This document shows, one piece after another, positions 3,079-55,774 of a DNA stretch of 64,000 bases; position 1 is the stretch's first letter, and each line of letters begins with the position of its first letter. The notes below the pieces were generated by a model. It did no database searches. It had not been told where the DNA came from and was given only the letters and a program-made list of their open reading frames with translations. The translations under genes were made by a program, and so were the position numbers. The stretch spans positions 8,309,875-8,373,874 of the forward strand of contig OZ316891.1 of the NCBI GenBank assembly GCA_973895155.1, read 5' to 3'. Source of the DNA: Marsupella aquatica (lineage: Eukaryota; Plantae; Marchantiophyta).

Positions 3079-3696
3079 ATGGCACAGTATGAGACGAACA
3101 CCAACGTGGTGCAGAAACCCGGAATTGTCGAGAAGGTGAAGCTCAAGGCTGAGGGCCTGATGGACAAGGTAACGGGACATAGTCACACCGGCACCACGAC
3201 TGGTGTTGGAGGAGCAGGAACGACGACGCCTGGGTTGGGCGGAGCAGGATCGAACATGTCAGGCGGGGGTGCCGGTTATGGACACCAGCAGCCAGGCTAC
3301 GGAGAGTCGCAGCAGCTCGGGACCAACACCGGGTACGCGGAGCAGCAGCCCCATGGTCACCACAACCACGGCCTTGGAGGACAGCAACCAATGATGGGAA
3401 CCACCGATGCCGCCTATGGACAACCCCAACATCATAGCGTCGTGGACAAGGTGAAGGACGCCGTCGAGCCCGGTCGCCAATCTGATCATGTGGGTGCTGG
3501 ATACGGTACTGGCACTGGCACTGGCACTGGCCATCACACCGGAACTGGCACTGGCATTGGCACTGGCCATCATACCGGGACTGGCACAGCTTCGGGAACG
3601 ACAGGCATGTCTTTAACCGACAAGATCAAGAGCAAGCTACCAGGCCATCACACTACCGGTACTGGAGCTGGCTACGATAACCAGGGCAAATATTGA
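3079..3696 (+). CDS. DHN: Dehydrin (LEA group 2), Gly/Thr/His-rich, 205 aa
   Basis: K-segment-like motifs KPGIVEKVKLKAEG, HSVVDKVKDAVEPG and MSLTDKIKSKLPGHH; low-complexity GTGTG/GHHTG phi-like segments; hydrophilic, no Cys or Trp; good start context AACATGG. Confidence 0.9.
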   Translation: MAQYETNTNVVQKPGIVEKVKLKAEGLMDKVTGHSHTGTTTGVGGAGTTTPGLGGAGSNMSGGGAGYGHQQPGYGESQQLGTNTGYAEQQPHGHHNHGLGGQQPMMGTTDAAYGQPQHHSVVDKVKDAVEPGRQSDHVGAGYGTGTGTGTGHHTGTGTGIGTGHHTGTGTASGTTGMSLTDKIKSKLPGHHTTGTGAGYDNQGKY

Positions 3697-4285
3697 GCTG
3701 AGCAGGTCTTCGGAAGCCTTGACTGTGTGCGTTTGTGTCACATTGATCGAGAGTCGGCTCTAGCTAGCATCAGAAGTAGCTCGTTTCATAGATCTATCGC
3801 TAGACACTCGTCGAGTGTTAAGATCAATGACGAGTGGTCCATGCCACCATTACACTGACCTGGTGATGCATTGGAGCTTGGAGCTTGGATTATCAGTACC
3901 TAGCACCATCCTAGCATTGTCGCATTATCTAATGTGCAAGTTTGAAGATAGTTAAAATCCTTGCTGAATGGGTTGGTTTCCTCCCACGTAGGAAAGAAGG
4001 TTTCAAAGTAGGCAAATCTCTGCATGTGGAATCGAAGATGACAATAATTCTCCCACGCAGGATACCAGAAAAGTAGCCCAATGTAGGCGATATGAGCATT
4101 AGCTGAAACTAGTTGGTGTTATGAAATCGATCATGACAGTGGGCACTATGGTGCAAATGTAATCTTAACGTGTGAGTCTTTTTACTGTAAATTCCAATGA
4201 AATCGAATATGACAGAGGTACATGGTGGAGGAGGACCATTTGATTATAATGAAACTATCATTTGTATCATTGCTTGGGCTGTTTT

Positions 4286-4580
4286 GTCTCAGTTTGCAGA
4301 GTGTAGCATTGATTTCAAATCTTGAGACCATTTGATTATAGCTGTACATCTGGTTGACGGACAGCTTGGACTCCTTTGTCTCAGTTTGCACAGTGTAGCA
4401 TTGAGACCATTTGATTATAGCTGTACATCTGGTTGACCGACAACTTGGACTCCTCTGTCTTAGTTTGCACAGTGTAGCATTGATTTCAAATTTGAGACCA
4501 TTTGATTATAGCTGCACATCTGAAGTGTAGCATTGCTTTGAATACTTTGAGAGAACGACCAATGAATTGTAGCCGTATAT
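4286..4580. repeat. Tandem repeat of ~80-95 bp units inside repeat copy 1
   Basis: AGTGTAGCATTG...GAGACCATTTGATTATAGCTG(T/C)ACATCTG recurs 3-4 times; fewer units at the matching place in copy 2. Confidence 0.8.
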
Positions 4581-5041
4581 CTGGTTTAACTCTTGCATGT
4601 TGATTGACATTTTAGTCATGCGCAAGTCTGGTTGTGCAGATTAAAACAATTAGAAATTGAAATCAAGAATTTTTGTATCATCTGCATGTACAATACCAAC
4701 ATAAATTCACTGCACTAACATTTTCCATGAATTGAAACCGAAAGATTTAGCCAAAACGAAAATGGAGTGATGGAGTGATAGTGCGAAAGAGGTGGCCAAA
4801 ACCATGAATTGAAACCGAAAAAGTTAGCCAAAACCATCAATTGTAACCTATTCGGATGATTATGCTTCGGATGATTATGCTTCTTCTCTTGATTCAAATG
4901 CAATATTAAATTACCACCTGAAGAAGTTCGAAAGTAGAAAAAGTAAAAATTTGGAAAATTCTGTCATCCCCTGGAACAATGATGTCTACAACGTCCGAAA
5001 ACTAAAATACATCATGTCTGTAGAAGAATTTGGTAATAAAT

Positions 5042-5137
5042 GCGATTAATCCAGCATCTCATAGTCCAAGCAATGCGAGTGAAAAGGAGCGATTAATCCA
5101 GCATCTCATAGTCCAAGCAATGCGAGTGAAAAGGAGC
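5042..5137. repeat. Perfect ~47 bp tandem duplication
   Basis: GCGATTAATCCAGCATCTCATAGTCCAAGCAATGCGAGTGAAAAGGA occurs twice. Confidence 0.9.
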
Positions 5138-6330
5138 TGAAGTTTCTGCAAACTTCTCGTTCTCAGTGTGTTAACTGATTGGTCTTCAACAGTTACTATT
5201 GACGAACATCCATATTTCGTGGATACATTGCGTATTGTGGTTCAAAATCTGAATCCAGTCCCTACCTTTGACTGACGGCCCCAAAACTCTACCTTGAATG
5301 CCATGTAAATTTCATCAACTATGGCTTCACCCTGAACGTTTCAGATTTCTTCTGAGTACCACACCCTTGATCCCCCCACACATTCTGACCCAACTCCGAA
5401 CGTCGCTCTCGACGATGGTTATTATCAGCCTCCACACACTTCTTGATGTACATTTGGAGTTTTTCCCAATCTCGTAGACTTAGTGACCAGGCCTTTGTCT
5501 TTAGCTGCCTTGGGACTTCATAACTTGGGTGTCAGGCCTGTAGCTCAGGGTTCATAAATGAAAATTCTGCTCCCTTAAGTGTTCAAGATTCAGTTCTTCA
5601 TAGTCAGAGACGTAAGAATTGAACAAGTAACTCAAGGTTTCCCTTGGATCTCATCTTAACGTCTAGGTGCAAAGCGTGTCACAGAATATTTCCTTAAAAG
5701 CCCAAAACAAATAATCATAGGAATTGTTGATCACATGCAGAAGAAACTCAAGATTTCCATTCTCTCCCAAAGCACATAACCAGCATGGATGCGCGATGCC
5801 AACAGTAACTGTTGCATTGCAAAACTTGGCTTCGAGTAACAACAATAAGAGTGAGAGAGAGTTTTCTGAAGTAGACCACTAAGAATGTCCACAGATTGTT
5901 ATGAATTCTATATACACCTTAAGTGGTAAGTTCATTGCTAGTGAGATGATTCACTTCCATTTGTTGTAATCTCACTTGGTCAACATTTGGTTGCATGGGC
6001 AAGACCATAGATGTTGACTGGATAGTTTGTTAAATTGAGCATATCAAATGTCCGCCTTTGAGGGGTGAAAGAGTCTGCGAGGGCCATAGACCAAAAGTCT
6101 CTTGCTCCACCAAAAATCCAGCTGGTTAGTCCCAACAACGTTTTCTTAAATGTTCACATCCTCCAAAACCCAAATACCCTCCTAGTTCACCATATAGTCC
6201 TCTAGCTTCGAAATGTTTTTAGAGCTAAGAACATCGCTGGGTCCAACCATGAATGATTGTTGTCATATGAACAATGTAGTTGCTACCTATGATTCCGAAT
6301 GTTCTGATCCAAATTATTTGATCTCTTCAG

Positions 6331-6847
6331 GTGGAAGTGCCTATTCATGAAGTTCATGGGCTTCCAAACTATCCTCTTGATTTGGAGAGACGCTGCTTGG
6401 ATGTGAAGGAGAGGCTTGCTGGTGGAGCTCTTCTTGGAATTTTGGCATGGGTGGGATTGACAAGACCACTCTTGCAATGCAAGCATTTAACATTCTTTCC
6501 AAAGACTTTGAATAATAAACTTTGTGGATAATGTAAAAGGCATCCCATTACACGAATTGCAGGATCGGGTTCTCAATCACTTTTATCACAATGGGAAGAA
6601 ACCAGATAAAGGTGTAATTGAGTGGCAGCATTTGCAGAGCAAGAAAGCTTTAATTGCCATGGATGACGTAGATGCGCAGGATCAGCTCATCATTCTACCA
6701 AGATTGGAGCACAGGTTGAGAGAAGCACAAGCCATAACTGCGGAGAAACGGGACAGGGTCAGGGCTTCCTTGAGGATAAGCTATGATGCCCAGTTACCAG
6801 AGGAACAGGGGATCGATGTTCATCGAGGCTGCGTCGATTTTCTTTGA
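6331..6847 (+). pseudogene. Degenerate NB-ARC (NLR resistance-gene) fragment
   Basis: Frameshifted pieces give a P-loop GMGGIDKTTLA (6444-6476, canonical G replaced by D, stop at 6513), kinase-2 KKALIAMDDVDAQDQL and a LRISYDAQLPEEQ segment resembling the region before RNBS-D. The GLPL region appears deleted. Possible splice acceptor TTCAG at 6326-6330. Confidence 0.8.
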
Positions 6848-7177
6848 ACAGCCATTGGAGCCAGTCTAATGCAGTTCAACCCATCTTCTTCGCAACGGCC
6901 CAAAGCATTCCCGTATATCATCTGTCTTGTATTCGTGCATTGAAAACCCCGGAGGTTGCCATTGCTGGAGGGGCCTTCGGGAGCTCCACCTGGGACCTGC
7001 GTCGAGCCATTCACCTTTATTGAGAAGTTGAAGGGATCCGAAATATCTGGAATGTTAGCAAGGTAAGGAAATAGATTTGGAAGGAATGGAATCCAATGCA
7101 CGAAAGGGAAGCTGTGTGGTATAAATTCAAACTGCCAAATCTTACTGTAAAAGCGCAAACTCAAGCCTACTATTAAA

Positions 7178-7515
7178 GGCCTAGGTCTAGAGTGAAGACT
7201 CTAGACCTTAACTCTTTACCAATAGAGACAAAAATTGATCTGTTTACCTTACTATAAAAATAAAAGTGCCAACTGAAATCTACTTTTAAAGGCCTAGGTG
7301 TAAAGTGAAGACTCTAGACTTACTATAAAAGTGTCAATGCTTTTAAAGGCTTAGGTCTAGAGTGAAGACTCTAGACAATAACTCCCAGGTCTAGAGTGAA
7401 GACTGTAGACTTACTATCAAAGTGCCAACTCTATAGTAGATTTACTATGATATGAAAAGTGTCAATTGAAGTCTATTTTTAAGGGCCTAGGTCTAGAGCG
7501 AAGACTCTAGACTGC
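7178..7515. repeat. Array of five short hairpin units, GTCTAGAGT-GAAG-ACTCTAGAC
   Basis: Copies start at ~7183, 7296, 7353, 7387 and 7489; 9-11 bp stem with GAAG loop; related spacers (TTACTATAAAAGTG(C/T)CAA). Confidence 0.85.
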
Positions 7516-7629
7516 AACTCCCAATAGAGAACAATGATCTTGAAATTCAATAAGGTCAAAATTTTAAACAAGGATGAACAAAAATAACATTAACTCTAAA
7601 AAGACAACTAAAAAGCGCAGGAAGACAAG

Positions 7630-7720
7630 ATCCCTCAGGCGGCAAAAGACCCAATCAAAAGGGGTAACCAAATCATCCCTCAGGCAAAAGACCCAATGAA
7701 AGGGGGACAACCAAAGGACC
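7630..7720. repeat. Two copies of a dispersed A-rich repeat (GGCAAAAGACCCAAT..AAGGGG), possibly a retroelement end
   Basis: Similar segments at ~24941, ~41872 and ~42165, and inverted at ~63810. Confidence 0.55.
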
Positions 7721-8192
7721 TAGAAAGGCCATGAGTCCATGACGCAAAGAAAGTCGTTCACGTATGACGTATGACGAGGTCTCACTTGGTCGCACCCTAC
7801 AGTCGTGTACCTACCAACGGTGTTCCCAAAATCTTGCAGAAGGCGCAGCGAGCCTACCAAAACATCTACTGTACAGTTAGTAGGAGCCCCGCACTTCAAG
7901 ACTCTCGGCCGTATCTCACAACCTTCACGTGAATTTATAAGCTCGCTGATTTTCGCATCTCAGAAAGCTTCACTTGGAATTCGCATCCCAGTAGCTTCAG
8001 AAAAACTCTCTCTTCAGGGGGGTGTGTCTCTCATGCTCGACGAAAACGGTCACCTTCCTTGTGTCATCTCACCAGCCTTCATCGCAGAGAATTCTCTCCG
8101 GTCGTTCTTTCCTCCTCACAAAAAACTGGAATGCTGGTTGTATGCTATAGCTCACCAATCTCACGTCCTTAGATCAGCTTCACCAACCCACA

Positions 8193-9437
8193 ATGGCCTC
8201 GCCAATCTACCCACTCCCACCAGGCGTCTACGCCGTCCCCTCTCACCTCCTTGATCTGCGGGCGGATTCTGAAGTGGATTATGACCTCCTTCATCCCAAG
8301 CCCGTGTCCGATGAGAAGAACATTTGGTTCTTCTGGCACTCTGGCTACACGCAGATGCACCCCTACACGAAGAGAAATATTAGAGCATGGCATCGGCGCA
8401 TCTCCAAGCAAGGGTGGACGATTCGCGTCCTCGACCGCCTCTCCTCCTCGCCCCTGAACGTCGCAAACTTCCTTGACATCTCTGACCCGGGCACTTTTCC
8501 CGTTGCGTTCGTGGATGGGACCATCGGCGGTGACTACGCGCCCCAGCATACCTCCGACCTCGTCCGGTTTCCACTTCTGCTCAAGTACGGGGGTGTGTAC
8601 GCCGATGTAGGGTTGATGCAAATCGGCGACTTGAATCGACTATGGAGCGAGACTGTTGGCAACCCTGCCTCGCGGTTCGATGTCCTCACTTACAACGCTG
8701 GCGGCGTCGAGGTGCGCAGTCTGACGAACTACTTCCTTTGCTCTGGACGGAACAATCCGTTCTTTGCACGCTGTCACAAGCTTCTGCTGGAGTTGTGGGC
8801 CGCCGACGGCGGCAAGACGAGCACTGACGGAATGCACAGCAGTCCATTGCTAACGGGGGTTGAGCTGTTGGGGGAAGGATTATATACAATTGAGGAGGGC
8901 GAGAAGAAGATTGGGCCGGAAGAAGTCAGTAGGATGTTAACGGATTACATTATTCAGGCTCAGGTGATGACGCTTGTCATGGGTCTCATCGATGAAGAAG
9001 ATGGCTGGGACGGACCAAAGTATGTCGCAGAGCACTTGTACGCCATCGAGTACATGGTGGGCTCGCAGCTCATTAACCAGATGACTGAATGGGACGGGAA
9101 GAAGGCCTTCACTCTAATGTCGCTTCCGCTTCCGAAAGAAGGTGAAGTGGAGACCGCAGAGCAGAAACAGGCCAGGGAGATCGTCGAGGAATGCTTGCAA
9201 AAGAGCTTCGGATTTAAGCTCGCTCATGGGCTGATTCTGAGAGTCTTCGGAGACACCTTGGGGTCGCTGTGGAGGAAGCATGAGGGCTCGGATAATGTAC
9301 CAGGGACCTACGCGCATTATTTGAGGCACGGGACAACGTATTGGAATCAGGACGGTGTTCCACCTGGGCTGGAATTCAAGGTTATCGAGCCGATTAAGAG
9401 GGGCCCGTTGTTGAGGTCCACGCCATCATTACACTGA
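8193..9437 (+). CDS. Fungal-type 'capsule polysaccharide synthesis' (Caps_synth/GT32-like, DxD-type) glycosyltransferase, 414 aa, intronless; probable HGT
   Basis: Uninterrupted 414-codon ORF. Motifs KNIWFFWHSG, RNIRAWHRR, HTSDLVRFPLLLKYGGVYADVG and LTNYFL match my recollection of ascomycete Caps_synth proteins. No signal peptide or TM segment is evident, and it is GC-richer than its flanks. Confidence 0.85.
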   Translation: MASPIYPLPPGVYAVPSHLLDLRADSEVDYDLLHPKPVSDEKNIWFFWHSGYTQMHPYTKRNIRAWHRRISKQGWTIRVLDRLSSSPLNVANFLDISDPGTFPVAFVDGTIGGDYAPQHTSDLVRFPLLLKYGGVYADVGLMQIGDLNRLWSETVGNPASRFDVLTYNAGGVEVRSLTNYFLCSGRNNPFFARCHKLLLELWAADGGKTSTDGMHSSPLLTGVELLGEGLYTIEEGEKKIGPEEVSRMLTDYIIQAQVMTLVMGLIDEEDGWDGPKYVAEHLYAIEYMVGSQLINQMTEWDGKKAFTLMSLPLPKEGEVETAEQKQAREIVEECLQKSFGFKLAHGLILRVFGDTLGSLWRKHEGSDNVPGTYAHYLRHGTTYWNQDGVPPGLEFKVIEPIKRGPLLRSTPSLH

Positions 9438-11250
9438 TCTGGTGATGCATTGGAGCTTGGAGCTTGGATTACCAGTACCTAGCACCATCCTAGCATTGTC
9501 GCATTATCTAATGTGCAATTTGACGATAGTTAAAATCCTTGTTGAATGAGTTGGTTTCCTCCCACGTAGGAAAGAAGGTTTTCAAAGTAGGCAAACCTCT
9601 GCGTGTGAAATCGAAGATGACAATAATTCTCCCACGTAGGAAAGCAGAAAAGTAGCCCAATCTAGACGATATGATCATGAGCTGCCTGAAAGGAATCTAG
9701 TTGGAGTTATGAAATTGATCACCACAGTGGGCACAATTGTGCAAAAGTAGTCTTGTCGTGTGAGTTTTGTTACTGTAAATTTGCAATGAATTCGAACATG
9801 ACAGTGAGGTACACGGTGACGGACGACCATTTCATTGTAAAGGAATTGGAGTTATGAAATTGATCACGACAGTGGGCACAATTGTGCAAAAGTAGTCTTG
9901 ACGTGTGAGTTTTGTTTACTGTAAATTTGCAATGAACTCGAACATGACAGTGAGGTACATGGTGAAGGACGACCATCTGATTGTGAAGGAATGAGTTTCA
10001 GTTGTATCATTGCTTGGATTGCTTTGTCTCAGTTTGCAGAATGTAGCATTGATTTAAGTTTTTAGAGAACAACTGATTATAGCTGTCCGTCTGTTTGACG
10101 AAAAACCGGAATGTAGTATTGATTTGAGTACTTTGAGAGAATGATTAACTGATCGTAGCTGTACATCTGGTTGGTTGACAATCAACTCGAACTTCTCTCA
10201 TATTAATGGGATGTTGTCATGCGGAAGGAAATTTACACAAACTTCTTTCGTTGTGGAGAATGAAATCTAGAAGTTTTGCATCATTATATGCACAATACTA
10301 ACAATTTCCTGAAAATGGAGTGAGTGCGAAAGAGTATGATGATGATGATGACTATGTTACTTCTACTGTGCATGACAGATTGCGGATTTGGAACACTCTT
10401 GATTCAAATGCAATATTGAGTTACCACTGTGTGACAAGCAAACAATTTGTTCGATTTTGTTACCACTGAATTCTGTCCCCATCCACTCCGAACAATAATT
10501 TCTACAAAGTTCGAAAGTTAGCCAGCAAAATAGTTTTAACACTTCGGAAACCAAAATACAAATAGTCTGTAGGAAAATTTGGAAGCAAACGCGATTAATC
10601 CAGCATTTCAGAGTCCAAATTGTGGAATTTTGCACCCATACAGTATTAGTTAAAAGAGCGGAAGTTTCTGATATTTCCTCGTTTATATTCCGACTTGTGG
10701 AATTTTCACCCTTACTGTAAGAGTGAAAAGAGCGGCAATTTCTGGTAACTCCTCGTTCTCAGTGTGTAAAACCAACTGTTCGTCAACAGTTGCAATTGAC
10801 GAACATCCATATTTCGTGCATCCACCGCGCAATGTTGATTTAAGATCGGAATCCAACCCCTACCTTTGACTGAAGACCCCAACATGCTACCGTTAATGCC
10901 ATGAAGTTTTCATCAAGAACTATGGCTTCACCCTGAACCTTTCAAATTTCTTCTAACTACCACACCCTTGATCCTCCACAGATCCTAACCCAACCCCGAA
11001 CGTCGCTCTCGACGATGATTATTACCAGCCTCCACGCACTTCTTGATATGCATTTGGAGCTTTTCCCAATCTCGTAGGCTTAGTTACCAGGCCTTTGCCT
11101 TCAGCTGCCTTGGGACTTCGTAACTTGGGTGTCGGGCCTGCGGCTCAGGATTCATAAATGAAAGTTCTGCTCCCTGAAGTGTTCAAGATTCAGTTTTTCA
11201 TCGTCACAGGTGTGAGAATTAAATAAGTAACTCAAGGTTTCCCTTGGATC
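9415..11250 (+). repeat. Segmental direct repeat, copy 2 (~1.8 kb); overlaps the last codons of the glycosyltransferase
   Basis: Homologous to 3836-5650; contains its own ~145 bp internal tandem duplication (~9701-9992). Confidence 0.95.
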
Positions 11251-11934
11251 CCAAGACTTGAGAGGCCGCGATTTCCTCGGAATGCTAATGGCAGGGGAAA
11301 CATGCGAATGTGAAATCCTCTTTCATCCACAAACGTCGTCAAGTGACTTAGAGACCAGGTTGGAACATTTAGACCACTTGACGGATGCTCAGAGACTGCA
11401 GGTCCAACAAGAGAATCAAAAGGTAATTAAGAAATTGGGCTTGATGAACCAATTCTTTAAGGTTCTTACAATGAGTAAGACAGCTGTCCAGTGAGCCAAA
11501 ATACAACTTTCAGATGCGGAGGAGCTTCTACATAAGACTGTGTTTTCTAAATCTGAACACAGGAAAGCATTCTCACTCCAAGTGTCACAAGCATCGAACC
11601 TAAAAGCCATTCTGGTCCCCAAAGAATGCTTATATAAATGATTAAACGAGAACAATGCAGAACACACCGAAGGCGAAACAATACTGTACGTGGCCGTGTT
11701 AGTGACCGGGAGAATGGATTTCAATATTTCAAATACGAAAAGCGGCATGAACCTGACAAACTTCGGTAGACATGAACTGTATAGAACTTCAGTGACACCA
11801 GATATGGACCGGTAACAGCAAAGAGAGGCTGAGATTTTCAACACCCTTCGCATCAGTAGTCCAATAGGTAGACACAGGCAAAGCTTGTGACTTTTACTAA
11901 ACTAAATGACTCAACTTTTACTAGAATAAATGAC

Positions 11935-15170
<3,236 letters not shown>

Positions 15171-54621: not shown

Positions 54622-55774
54622 ACAGGTCTCACATCACTCAGGTTTTCCATCAAGGGGGTCCATCAACTATGTGTCCAGCCATGTTGTAAGCTTGATCATA
54701 GGATAGTTCCTAGAATATTCCAAGAAAACAGGGGTTTAAACATCAATTAATTTTTGTTCGGATTTTGAAGGGTCTTTATATGCCCACAAATGTTGAGAGC
54801 CTCCAAGCCCAATGCCCTTGTGTTGCACAATATTGTAAGTTGATAAAATCATGTGATGTCTCATAGAAGTGTTATCATGGTCAGGCAGTACGCCAGTTGC
54901 CAAGTGAACGATTTCAAGGAGTGTTTGAGCTAGGGGGGAGTGACAGGCTGGGCACAACAAATATGCGCAATGACACCTTTAGGCCCATCTCATGGTTAGG
55001 AAAAAAATGTCACCTGGCCTTCCCTCTGCACAACCAACCCTCCATAAAAGCTGATCCTTCTCCTCTGCACCTGCCATGCAAGTCCTGCCCCTCGCTCTTT
55101 GCATGCCATGTATTATCCCATCAAGATTTGAGAATTCTCTGCACCCCAACCTGTCATGGAGAGGGTAAGGCAGGAGGAATGTGGGCAGGTGGGCGAGCAA
55201 CAGGGTCATGAGGAACACTCAGAGGAGGTCTTTAAGAAGATCTTGTGGCAGTGAAAAATCAGTATGCACATCAGACAGCCAATAAAAGTTCCAGTAAACG
55301 CATTTCATAACGAGACCACGGAAAAGAAAGAGCTGGCTGAGATATTGTTAGAATGTAGTGCTTAAGAATAAGAAGGTTAGTGTCACAAGGAAGTACTTCT
55401 TCCACAATTCGTCCAGAATGGAAATTTCGCACATGTACATTTACAGTTCTGTGTCTTGGTGATGGTGCTGTATCGCATAATTTGGCATGAATCTGTTCTC
55501 CACCTCGTTGGTAGATTTGCCAATTGAGCTGCAGACCTTCCCTAGTACTCCCCAGATCTTAATTAATGGTGTCGACGAAACGGCCTTGACATTTAGTTGA
55601 CACATGCCTTGACCGGCACAGACGCACAGTGCAGCTCTTCCTCAGTAAGTAGCCCACCATTCTGCAGCTAGGTTTCCACCGATTGTGTGGACAAAACGCA
55701 GGGCAAAACGCTGAGTGACCGGAATTGAAGGCACAGATTGCTCTTTCCTACACTGACCACTGTTTCGAAGTATT

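Follow-up and report, generated by a model that had tools for sequence, protein, structure and literature searches.

In the stretch of DNA analysed here (the window, 64,000 nucleotides), the gene for a fungus-type glycosyltransferase ends in host-derived sequence. The favoured reading, given a probability of about 0.7, is that a fungus-derived PF05704 gene lost the last 9 nt of its native sequence and was fused there with a 1.8-kb copy of the region downstream of a nearby dehydrin-like gene, likely by error-prone break repair; the copy gives six codons and a stop and would form the 3'UTR. The features concerned were as follows.

3079..3696, forward strand: dehydrin-like open reading frame, 205 aa, rich in Gly and Thr
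3697..3835, forward strand: unique 139 nt straight after the dehydrin-like stop, not duplicated in the self-alignment
3836..5650, forward strand: D1, the host copy of the duplicated block (block D); its first ~245 nt are likely the dehydrin 3'UTR or poly(A) region
7780..8041, forward strand: likely host promoter-like stretch of putative function, with CACGTG at 7925 and TTTATAA at 7934, then a CT-rich tract
8070..8192, forward strand: fungal 5' leader carried in with the gene, its left border fuzzy at about 8050-8100
8193..9437, forward strand: glycosyltransferase open reading frame, 414 aa
8193..9416, forward strand: fungus-derived glycosyltransferase coding sequence, codons 1-408, ending in KRGPLLR
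9415..9416, forward strand: junction, a 2-nt overlap (GG) that belongs both to the fungal Arg codon and to the first bases of the duplicate (GG at 3836-3837 in D1)
9417..9437, forward strand: host-derived six codons (STPSLH) and TGA stop, in place of two native codons and the native stop, from the alignments
9415..11250, forward strand: D2, the copy of D1; 3'UTR and terminator region of the glycosyltransferase by position, if transcribed
12030..15161, reverse strand: next host gene, a protein kinase (Pkinase match)

Fungal relatives of the glycosyltransferase

The 414-aa product matched PF05704 (E = 2.8e-13; 50.4 bits against a curated cut-off of 24.5) and PF04488. Foldseek returned weak GT-A matches (TM 0.2-0.3), Och1 among them, and by the profile score and these fold matches the protein was placed with the PF05704 Caps_synth/GT32-like glycosyltransferases; a PDB sequence search gave no match. 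Mean pLDDT of the structure model was 92.9, with 89 for residues 401-410 and 49 for the last four residues. A homologue search gave 831 matches, the best 120 of which were 73-87% identical to the window protein, and every organism-named match among those 120 was a fungus. The best match, P0001 (87% identical), is an environmental, fungal-type sequence. In a tree of 56 rows from a quick maximum-likelihood search (the window protein, the top 35 matches, further named matches and 6 loci), the protein was nested among fungal-type sequences, nearest to P0001 and P0003 (SH-aLRT 95), both environmental proteins without an organism name. Fungal relatives and nesting, over the best 120 of 831 matches, are those of a horizontally acquired fungal gene. 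In the same tree, three basidiomycete homologues (P0004, P0006 and P0088; Sphaerobolus, Piloderma and Hebeloma) stood among ascomycete ones with low support, hinting at fungus-to-fungus transfer of the family.

The window protein retained 170 of the 172 columns that were conserved in at least 95% of homologues (median departures among the homologues themselves, 3). Its two departures, P224E and W376Y, fall at near-invariant residues and may have changed enzyme activity. It shares with the fungal PF05704/PF04488 (GT32-like) enzymes, some of them auto-named FCK3 or 'O-glycosyltransferase', 73-87% identity (best 120 of 831) and a GT-A/Och1-like core, whereas it differs in having STPSLH for their C-terminal EK-type dipeptide, in addition to the two substitutions. 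The predicted acceptor of the enzyme is a small molecule or a glycan. It may be linked to the BraB/PaGT-type terpene glycosyltransferases. The Pfam family of BraB/PaGT is not given in the passages of PMC8403587 that were covered; passages of PMC9861600 describe FCK3 as a 'probable glycosyltransferase' in fungal cytokinin synthesis. Fungal neighbourhoods (51 open reading frames from 12 loci) were inconsistent, with no conserved gene cluster, one P450 and no terpene cyclase.

The junction and the duplicated block

A sequence-only reading of this DNA had proposed that homology to the dehydrin downstream region begins inside the glycosyltransferase frame, with 9415 corresponding to 3836. Self-BLAST and pairwise alignment both started exactly there (87.6% identity over the first 427 columns, E = 2e-148), and the coordinates were right. 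The terminal STPSLH-stop had been matched to non-coding DNA about 140 nt beyond the dehydrin stop; position 3836 indeed lies 140 nt past the stop at 3696, and the 21-mer at 9417-9437, which encodes STPSLH-stop, was identical to 3838-3858 at 19 of 21 bases. As also noted there, the reading frame crosses the junction, being open from fungal into host-derived sequence.

That the foreign coding sequence was cut near its native C-terminus agreed with the homologues, since in 109 of the 120 retrieved (of 831 found) the tail after the GPLL-type motif was exactly 3 residues, mostly REK or REE; among the same best 120 of 831, six had other tail lengths and five had no GPLL motif. The contrary case raised with that proposal, a native ending like STPSLH, occurred in none of the best 120 of 831. 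Similarity had been expected to end at KRGPLLR, and in BLASTN against 33 environmental loci none aligned beyond 9416, while 16 of the 33 stopped exactly at that base. The Arg codon was AGG in 15 of 26 printed loci. By the homologue tails and the locus alignments, only two codons and the stop (9 nt) were lost and the fungal Arg codon was kept. The 2-nt GG overlap is within chance and is not diagnostic of a repair pathway. When fungal-type 3' flanks were compared with 9417-9700, 0 of 8 beat all 200 shuffles. With a frame open across the junction and donors that lack the tail, the gene is a chimera with a host-derived C-terminus and stop.

The duplication ran with indels to about 5650/11250, a length of 1.8 kb, and the starts of D1 and D2 were 5.6 kb apart. 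The block thus reaches far beyond 9580, where the span first given for the capture (9411..9580) had ended. Upstream of 3836 and upstream of 9415 no similarity was found (local score 24), and replacement of a duplicated dehydrin gene by the fungal gene was rejected on this ground. A simple tandem duplication was likewise rejected, as the DNA bordering one copy is unrelated, on either side, to that bordering the other. A reading frame that crosses 5650 in decayed form matched no Pfam family, had 0 homology matches and gave no pointer to the ancestral end of the block. Right after D2, at 11250-11800, a plus-strand frame was poor in stops and is possibly a decayed gene.

D1 and D2 mismatched at 5.3% of sites in the first 245 nt (13/244) and at 13.0% in the distal block (64/494; Fisher p = 0.001), the latter corresponding to about 14% divergence when corrected. 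Under constraint on the dehydrin copy alone, 15.8 mismatches were expected in the first block against the 13 observed (p = 0.6), and the similarity of these 245 nt would be explained by such constraint, itself in keeping with a dehydrin 3'UTR; gene conversion would be another account. An Rfam search of the block gave no match, RNA folding showed nothing unusual (z = 0.07), and AATAAA was absent from both 3' regions, where variants only were present.

Variants, surroundings and rival explanations

All or part of the stretch was present in five sequencing runs (X1-X5) from three studies, X3 and X4 coming from one study. A single X4 contig ran from 9179 through the junction to 9427, continued with 4 other letters and resumed at 9605, and the same joint was found in X3. 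In this variant the 177 nt of 9428-9604 are replaced, with loss of the window's stop and most of the conserved block; the tail would be about 21 residues long, ending at 9653-9655, if the letters there equal those of the window. Deletions of 7 and 10 nt in D2 were present in other runs. A homologue of 429 aa, P0159, was considered as a plant deletion variant by its length and was rejected, being an N-terminally extended form that ends in REK. Judging from depth and from a pair of variants upstream, at 8062-8218, X3 may carry the glycosyltransferase gene in two copies or haplotypes. A contig of X5 left the gene at 8848 and continued for at least 255 letters absent from the window, which is possibly a truncated copy, an insertion or a low-depth chimera.

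The description of the host sequence as a 'rescue' of the foreign gene was not upheld. The loss amounted to no more than two residues and the stop, a frame entering block D at any of 700 points reached a stop within six codons in 37% of cases (median ten), longer tails are present in some homologues and therefore tolerated, and the X3/X4 variant does without this stop. The STPSLH tail is likely incidental, and likely neutral because the structure model leaves it disordered and another variant has a different ending in its place; the break itself was tolerated because the cut falls just past the last conserved motif (GPLL-R).

In the plant the gene itself seems to evolve under purifying selection. 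An X3 contig covering 8190-9427 had 26 differences from the window, 14 at 280 synonymous sites and 12 at 941 non-synonymous sites, giving a dN/dS of 0.25 (p = 0.0006) from one contig comparison in which the X3 contig may merge two copies. In neutral simulations at half the D1/D2 divergence, which take the junction to date from the duplication itself (14% divergence distally after correction), the frame stayed open in 5 of 5000 with substitutions and indels, and in 4.5% with substitutions alone. This one comparison and the 5/5000 neutral survival point to maintenance by selection in the host.

Apparent purifying selection, the ACGT cores upstream of the gene, CACGTG included, and the greater likeness of the first 245 nt of the duplicate over its distal block would fit an adaptive capture, in which the foreign gene needs the dehydrin-derived 3' end and gains from it a dehydrin-like, stress-linked control of its mRNA. 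This is unlikely. The first-block mismatches are in line with those expected with constraint on the dehydrin copy only, no unusual RNA structure or Rfam match was found, and the X3 and X4 variant lacks 9428-9604. Furthermore, a D2-like contig of X5 differed from the window's D2 at 13 of 278 sites with 17 gap letters, which is about the synonymous rate, and a D1-like contig of X5 had 17 differences from D2 against 15 for the window's D1 (a net figure, and a lower bound on change in D1). These comparisons suggest that the block matters behind the dehydrin-like gene and may drift behind the glycosyltransferase. The wider proposal, in which the liverwort took a fungal small-molecule glycosyltransferase into its own use by setting it between a host promoter (G-box/TATA) and the copied 3' end of a dehydrin gene, is likewise held only tentatively, at low odds.

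Under the favoured reading of a break repaired with copied host DNA, the fungal-type segment, which spans about 8070-9416 (the leader and codons 1-408), would have undergone end-joining with a templated copy of DNA from 5.6 kb away, during integration or later. Transcription would start from the host-like promoter at 7780-8041, polyadenylation would take place early in the duplicate, within a few hundred nt of its start and at signals likely used by the dehydrin-like gene, and selection would have kept the product, the cut lying just after the last conserved motif. By position D2 would be the 3'UTR, if the gene is transcribed. The junction may have been formed by a later local rearrangement and not at transfer.

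Two independent insertions of a mobile element, one downstream of the dehydrin-like gene and one in the final glycosyltransferase codons, would account for the sharp left border in both copies and for the further rearranged copies of D-like pieces in X3 and X4. This is distinctly improbable, as inspection of the four borders by eye showed neither a terminal inverted repeat nor a target-site duplication and depth in X1 over the block was near single-copy (11-18), which argues against classing block D as a transposable element; among the loose ends listed in front of 9415 (X2 and X3), only the dehydrin-side sequence of 3697..3835 was found.

In X1 a contig was identical to the window over 7770-9468 (0 differences), spanning both borders and reaching 54 nt into the duplicate. 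Its depth was 13.6, against 15.2 for the dehydrin contig and 16.9 for the kinase contig. An unbroken bridge of the window's own junction with at least 31 letters on both sides came from X1 only, which may be the window's own source sample, and support in X3/X4 came via the deletion variant or short overlaps. In a contig of X2, 8256 was connected with 55056 on the reverse strand by GATC-GATC, which we take to be the mark of a proximity-ligation-type product; read in this way, the one joint places the glycosyltransferase near host DNA 46.8 kb away. A disrupted allele at 8256 was rejected, as the loose end matches 55027-55056 in reverse at that joint. Almost no cover was present over 8270-9400 in the 57% of X2 that was read, and this was not used as evidence. 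X5 covered most of the gene at low depth, with no listed piece bridging the junction.

Mis-assembly of a fungal contaminant to plant DNA, for which the 87% protein identity to environmental fungal-type sequences and a GC3 of 0.68 (fungal-type loci, 0.70-0.76; host genes, 0.45-0.60) might speak, is very unlikely given the same junction with allelic differences in contigs of a second study, the host-level depth in X1, the proximity-type joint and the missing native fungal tail. The earlier argument against simple contamination was supported, and the junction, which by that proposal needed read support, was present in contigs of two studies; the gene is linked to genuine plant genes.

The 5' border was less sharp. 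For five of 7 fungal-type loci, similarity over 8100-8192 exceeded that of every one of 200 shuffles; global extension reached 8051-8070 in those five, and fungal similarity faded at about 8050-8070. The stretch of 7780-8041 had no fungal similarity above shuffles, and related copies of it with other continuations were found in other runs (loose ends 7862, 7873, 7914 and 8041); it is likely host DNA. Loss of similarity upstream of ~8050 may instead reflect fast divergence of fungal promoters, given that even the nearest locus shares no more than 83% identity over the coding sequence. Within 8142-8192, upstream of the gene and in its frame, an ATG soon meets a stop, and the codons after it resemble the N-terminal extensions predicted in some fungal-type homologues; this is a possible short uORF in the leader. 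Just upstream of the gene, 7140-7770 is a short high-copy repeat cluster (X1 summed depth >1000 at 7101-7500), and 6330-7050 holds a decayed NB-ARC-like fragment (P-loop-like stretch, Pfam E = 0.056) that is multi-copy by X1 depth.

Among the host genes, the neighbour first called a dehydrin is better called dehydrin-like. Its closest homologue, P0121 (59% identical), matched PF00257 below the curated cut-off (E = 1.1e-4; the one such match among four homologues), and the first ESM Atlas match was a dehydrin cluster (0.83, a lead only), but the window protein had no Pfam match at E<=1. A motif near its C-terminus is presumably K-segment-like. The kinase at 12030-15161 is taken to be SRPK-like. 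A GT47 gene in the window had its best match in Calypogeia fissa (75% identical), and the host looks like a leafy liverwort.

Relation to known transfers

The locus adds a clear case to the known transfers from fungi to bryophytes, here with capture of a host flank. Such transfers are described as frequent, continuing and often species-specific, and include fungal genes in liverworts (passages of Dong et al., PMC12513842). As in those cases, a microbial gene without introns lies in the window among plant genes that are genuine parts of a liverwort-like genome; a difference is that those passages give no junction anatomy. The main text of PMC12513842 contained neither 'glycosyltransferase' nor 'capsul', and one supplementary file, separate from the HGT data tables, had no family match; PF05704 may already be listed in those tables.

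As in the organelle genes activated by gaining nuclear transcription and polyadenylation motifs (passages of PMC4079196), a foreign coding sequence lies beside host-type expression signals. Here, in contrast, the donor was a eukaryote, the event was natural and the 3' flank was copied from another gene's downstream DNA and enters the frame; use of the signals would be expected from their position. Integration junctions of T-DNA and organelle DNA in plants commonly show end deletions, filler DNA and microhomology (PMC8395108). Like these, the present junction has lost a little foreign DNA at the end, overlaps by a few bases and carries copied host DNA, whereas its copied host piece is 1.8 kb long and ~14% diverged distally, which indicates that the event is old. 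The passages covered from a review of plant HGT mechanisms (PMC12448838) had one promoter passage and no UTR or polyadenylation terms. In a literature search that set subscription papers and most supplements outside its scope, no title on this gene or junction was found, nor was a source on liverwort 3'UTR length.

Reports of fungus-to-plant transfer mostly stop at phylogeny. This locus combines a 3' border known to the base and a 5' border known to within ~50 nt with a host source of the 3' flank at a distance of 5.6 kb, apparent purifying selection on the gene, and natural variants with and without the captured block. The evidence so far favours an incidental tail, which lessens the surprise. 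If the domestication proposal were true, a fungal enzyme would stand under desiccation/ABA control, and the segregating 3'-end variants would make the contribution of the captured terminator testable. The locus offers a usable test of whether a transferred eukaryotic gene needs host 3' signals.
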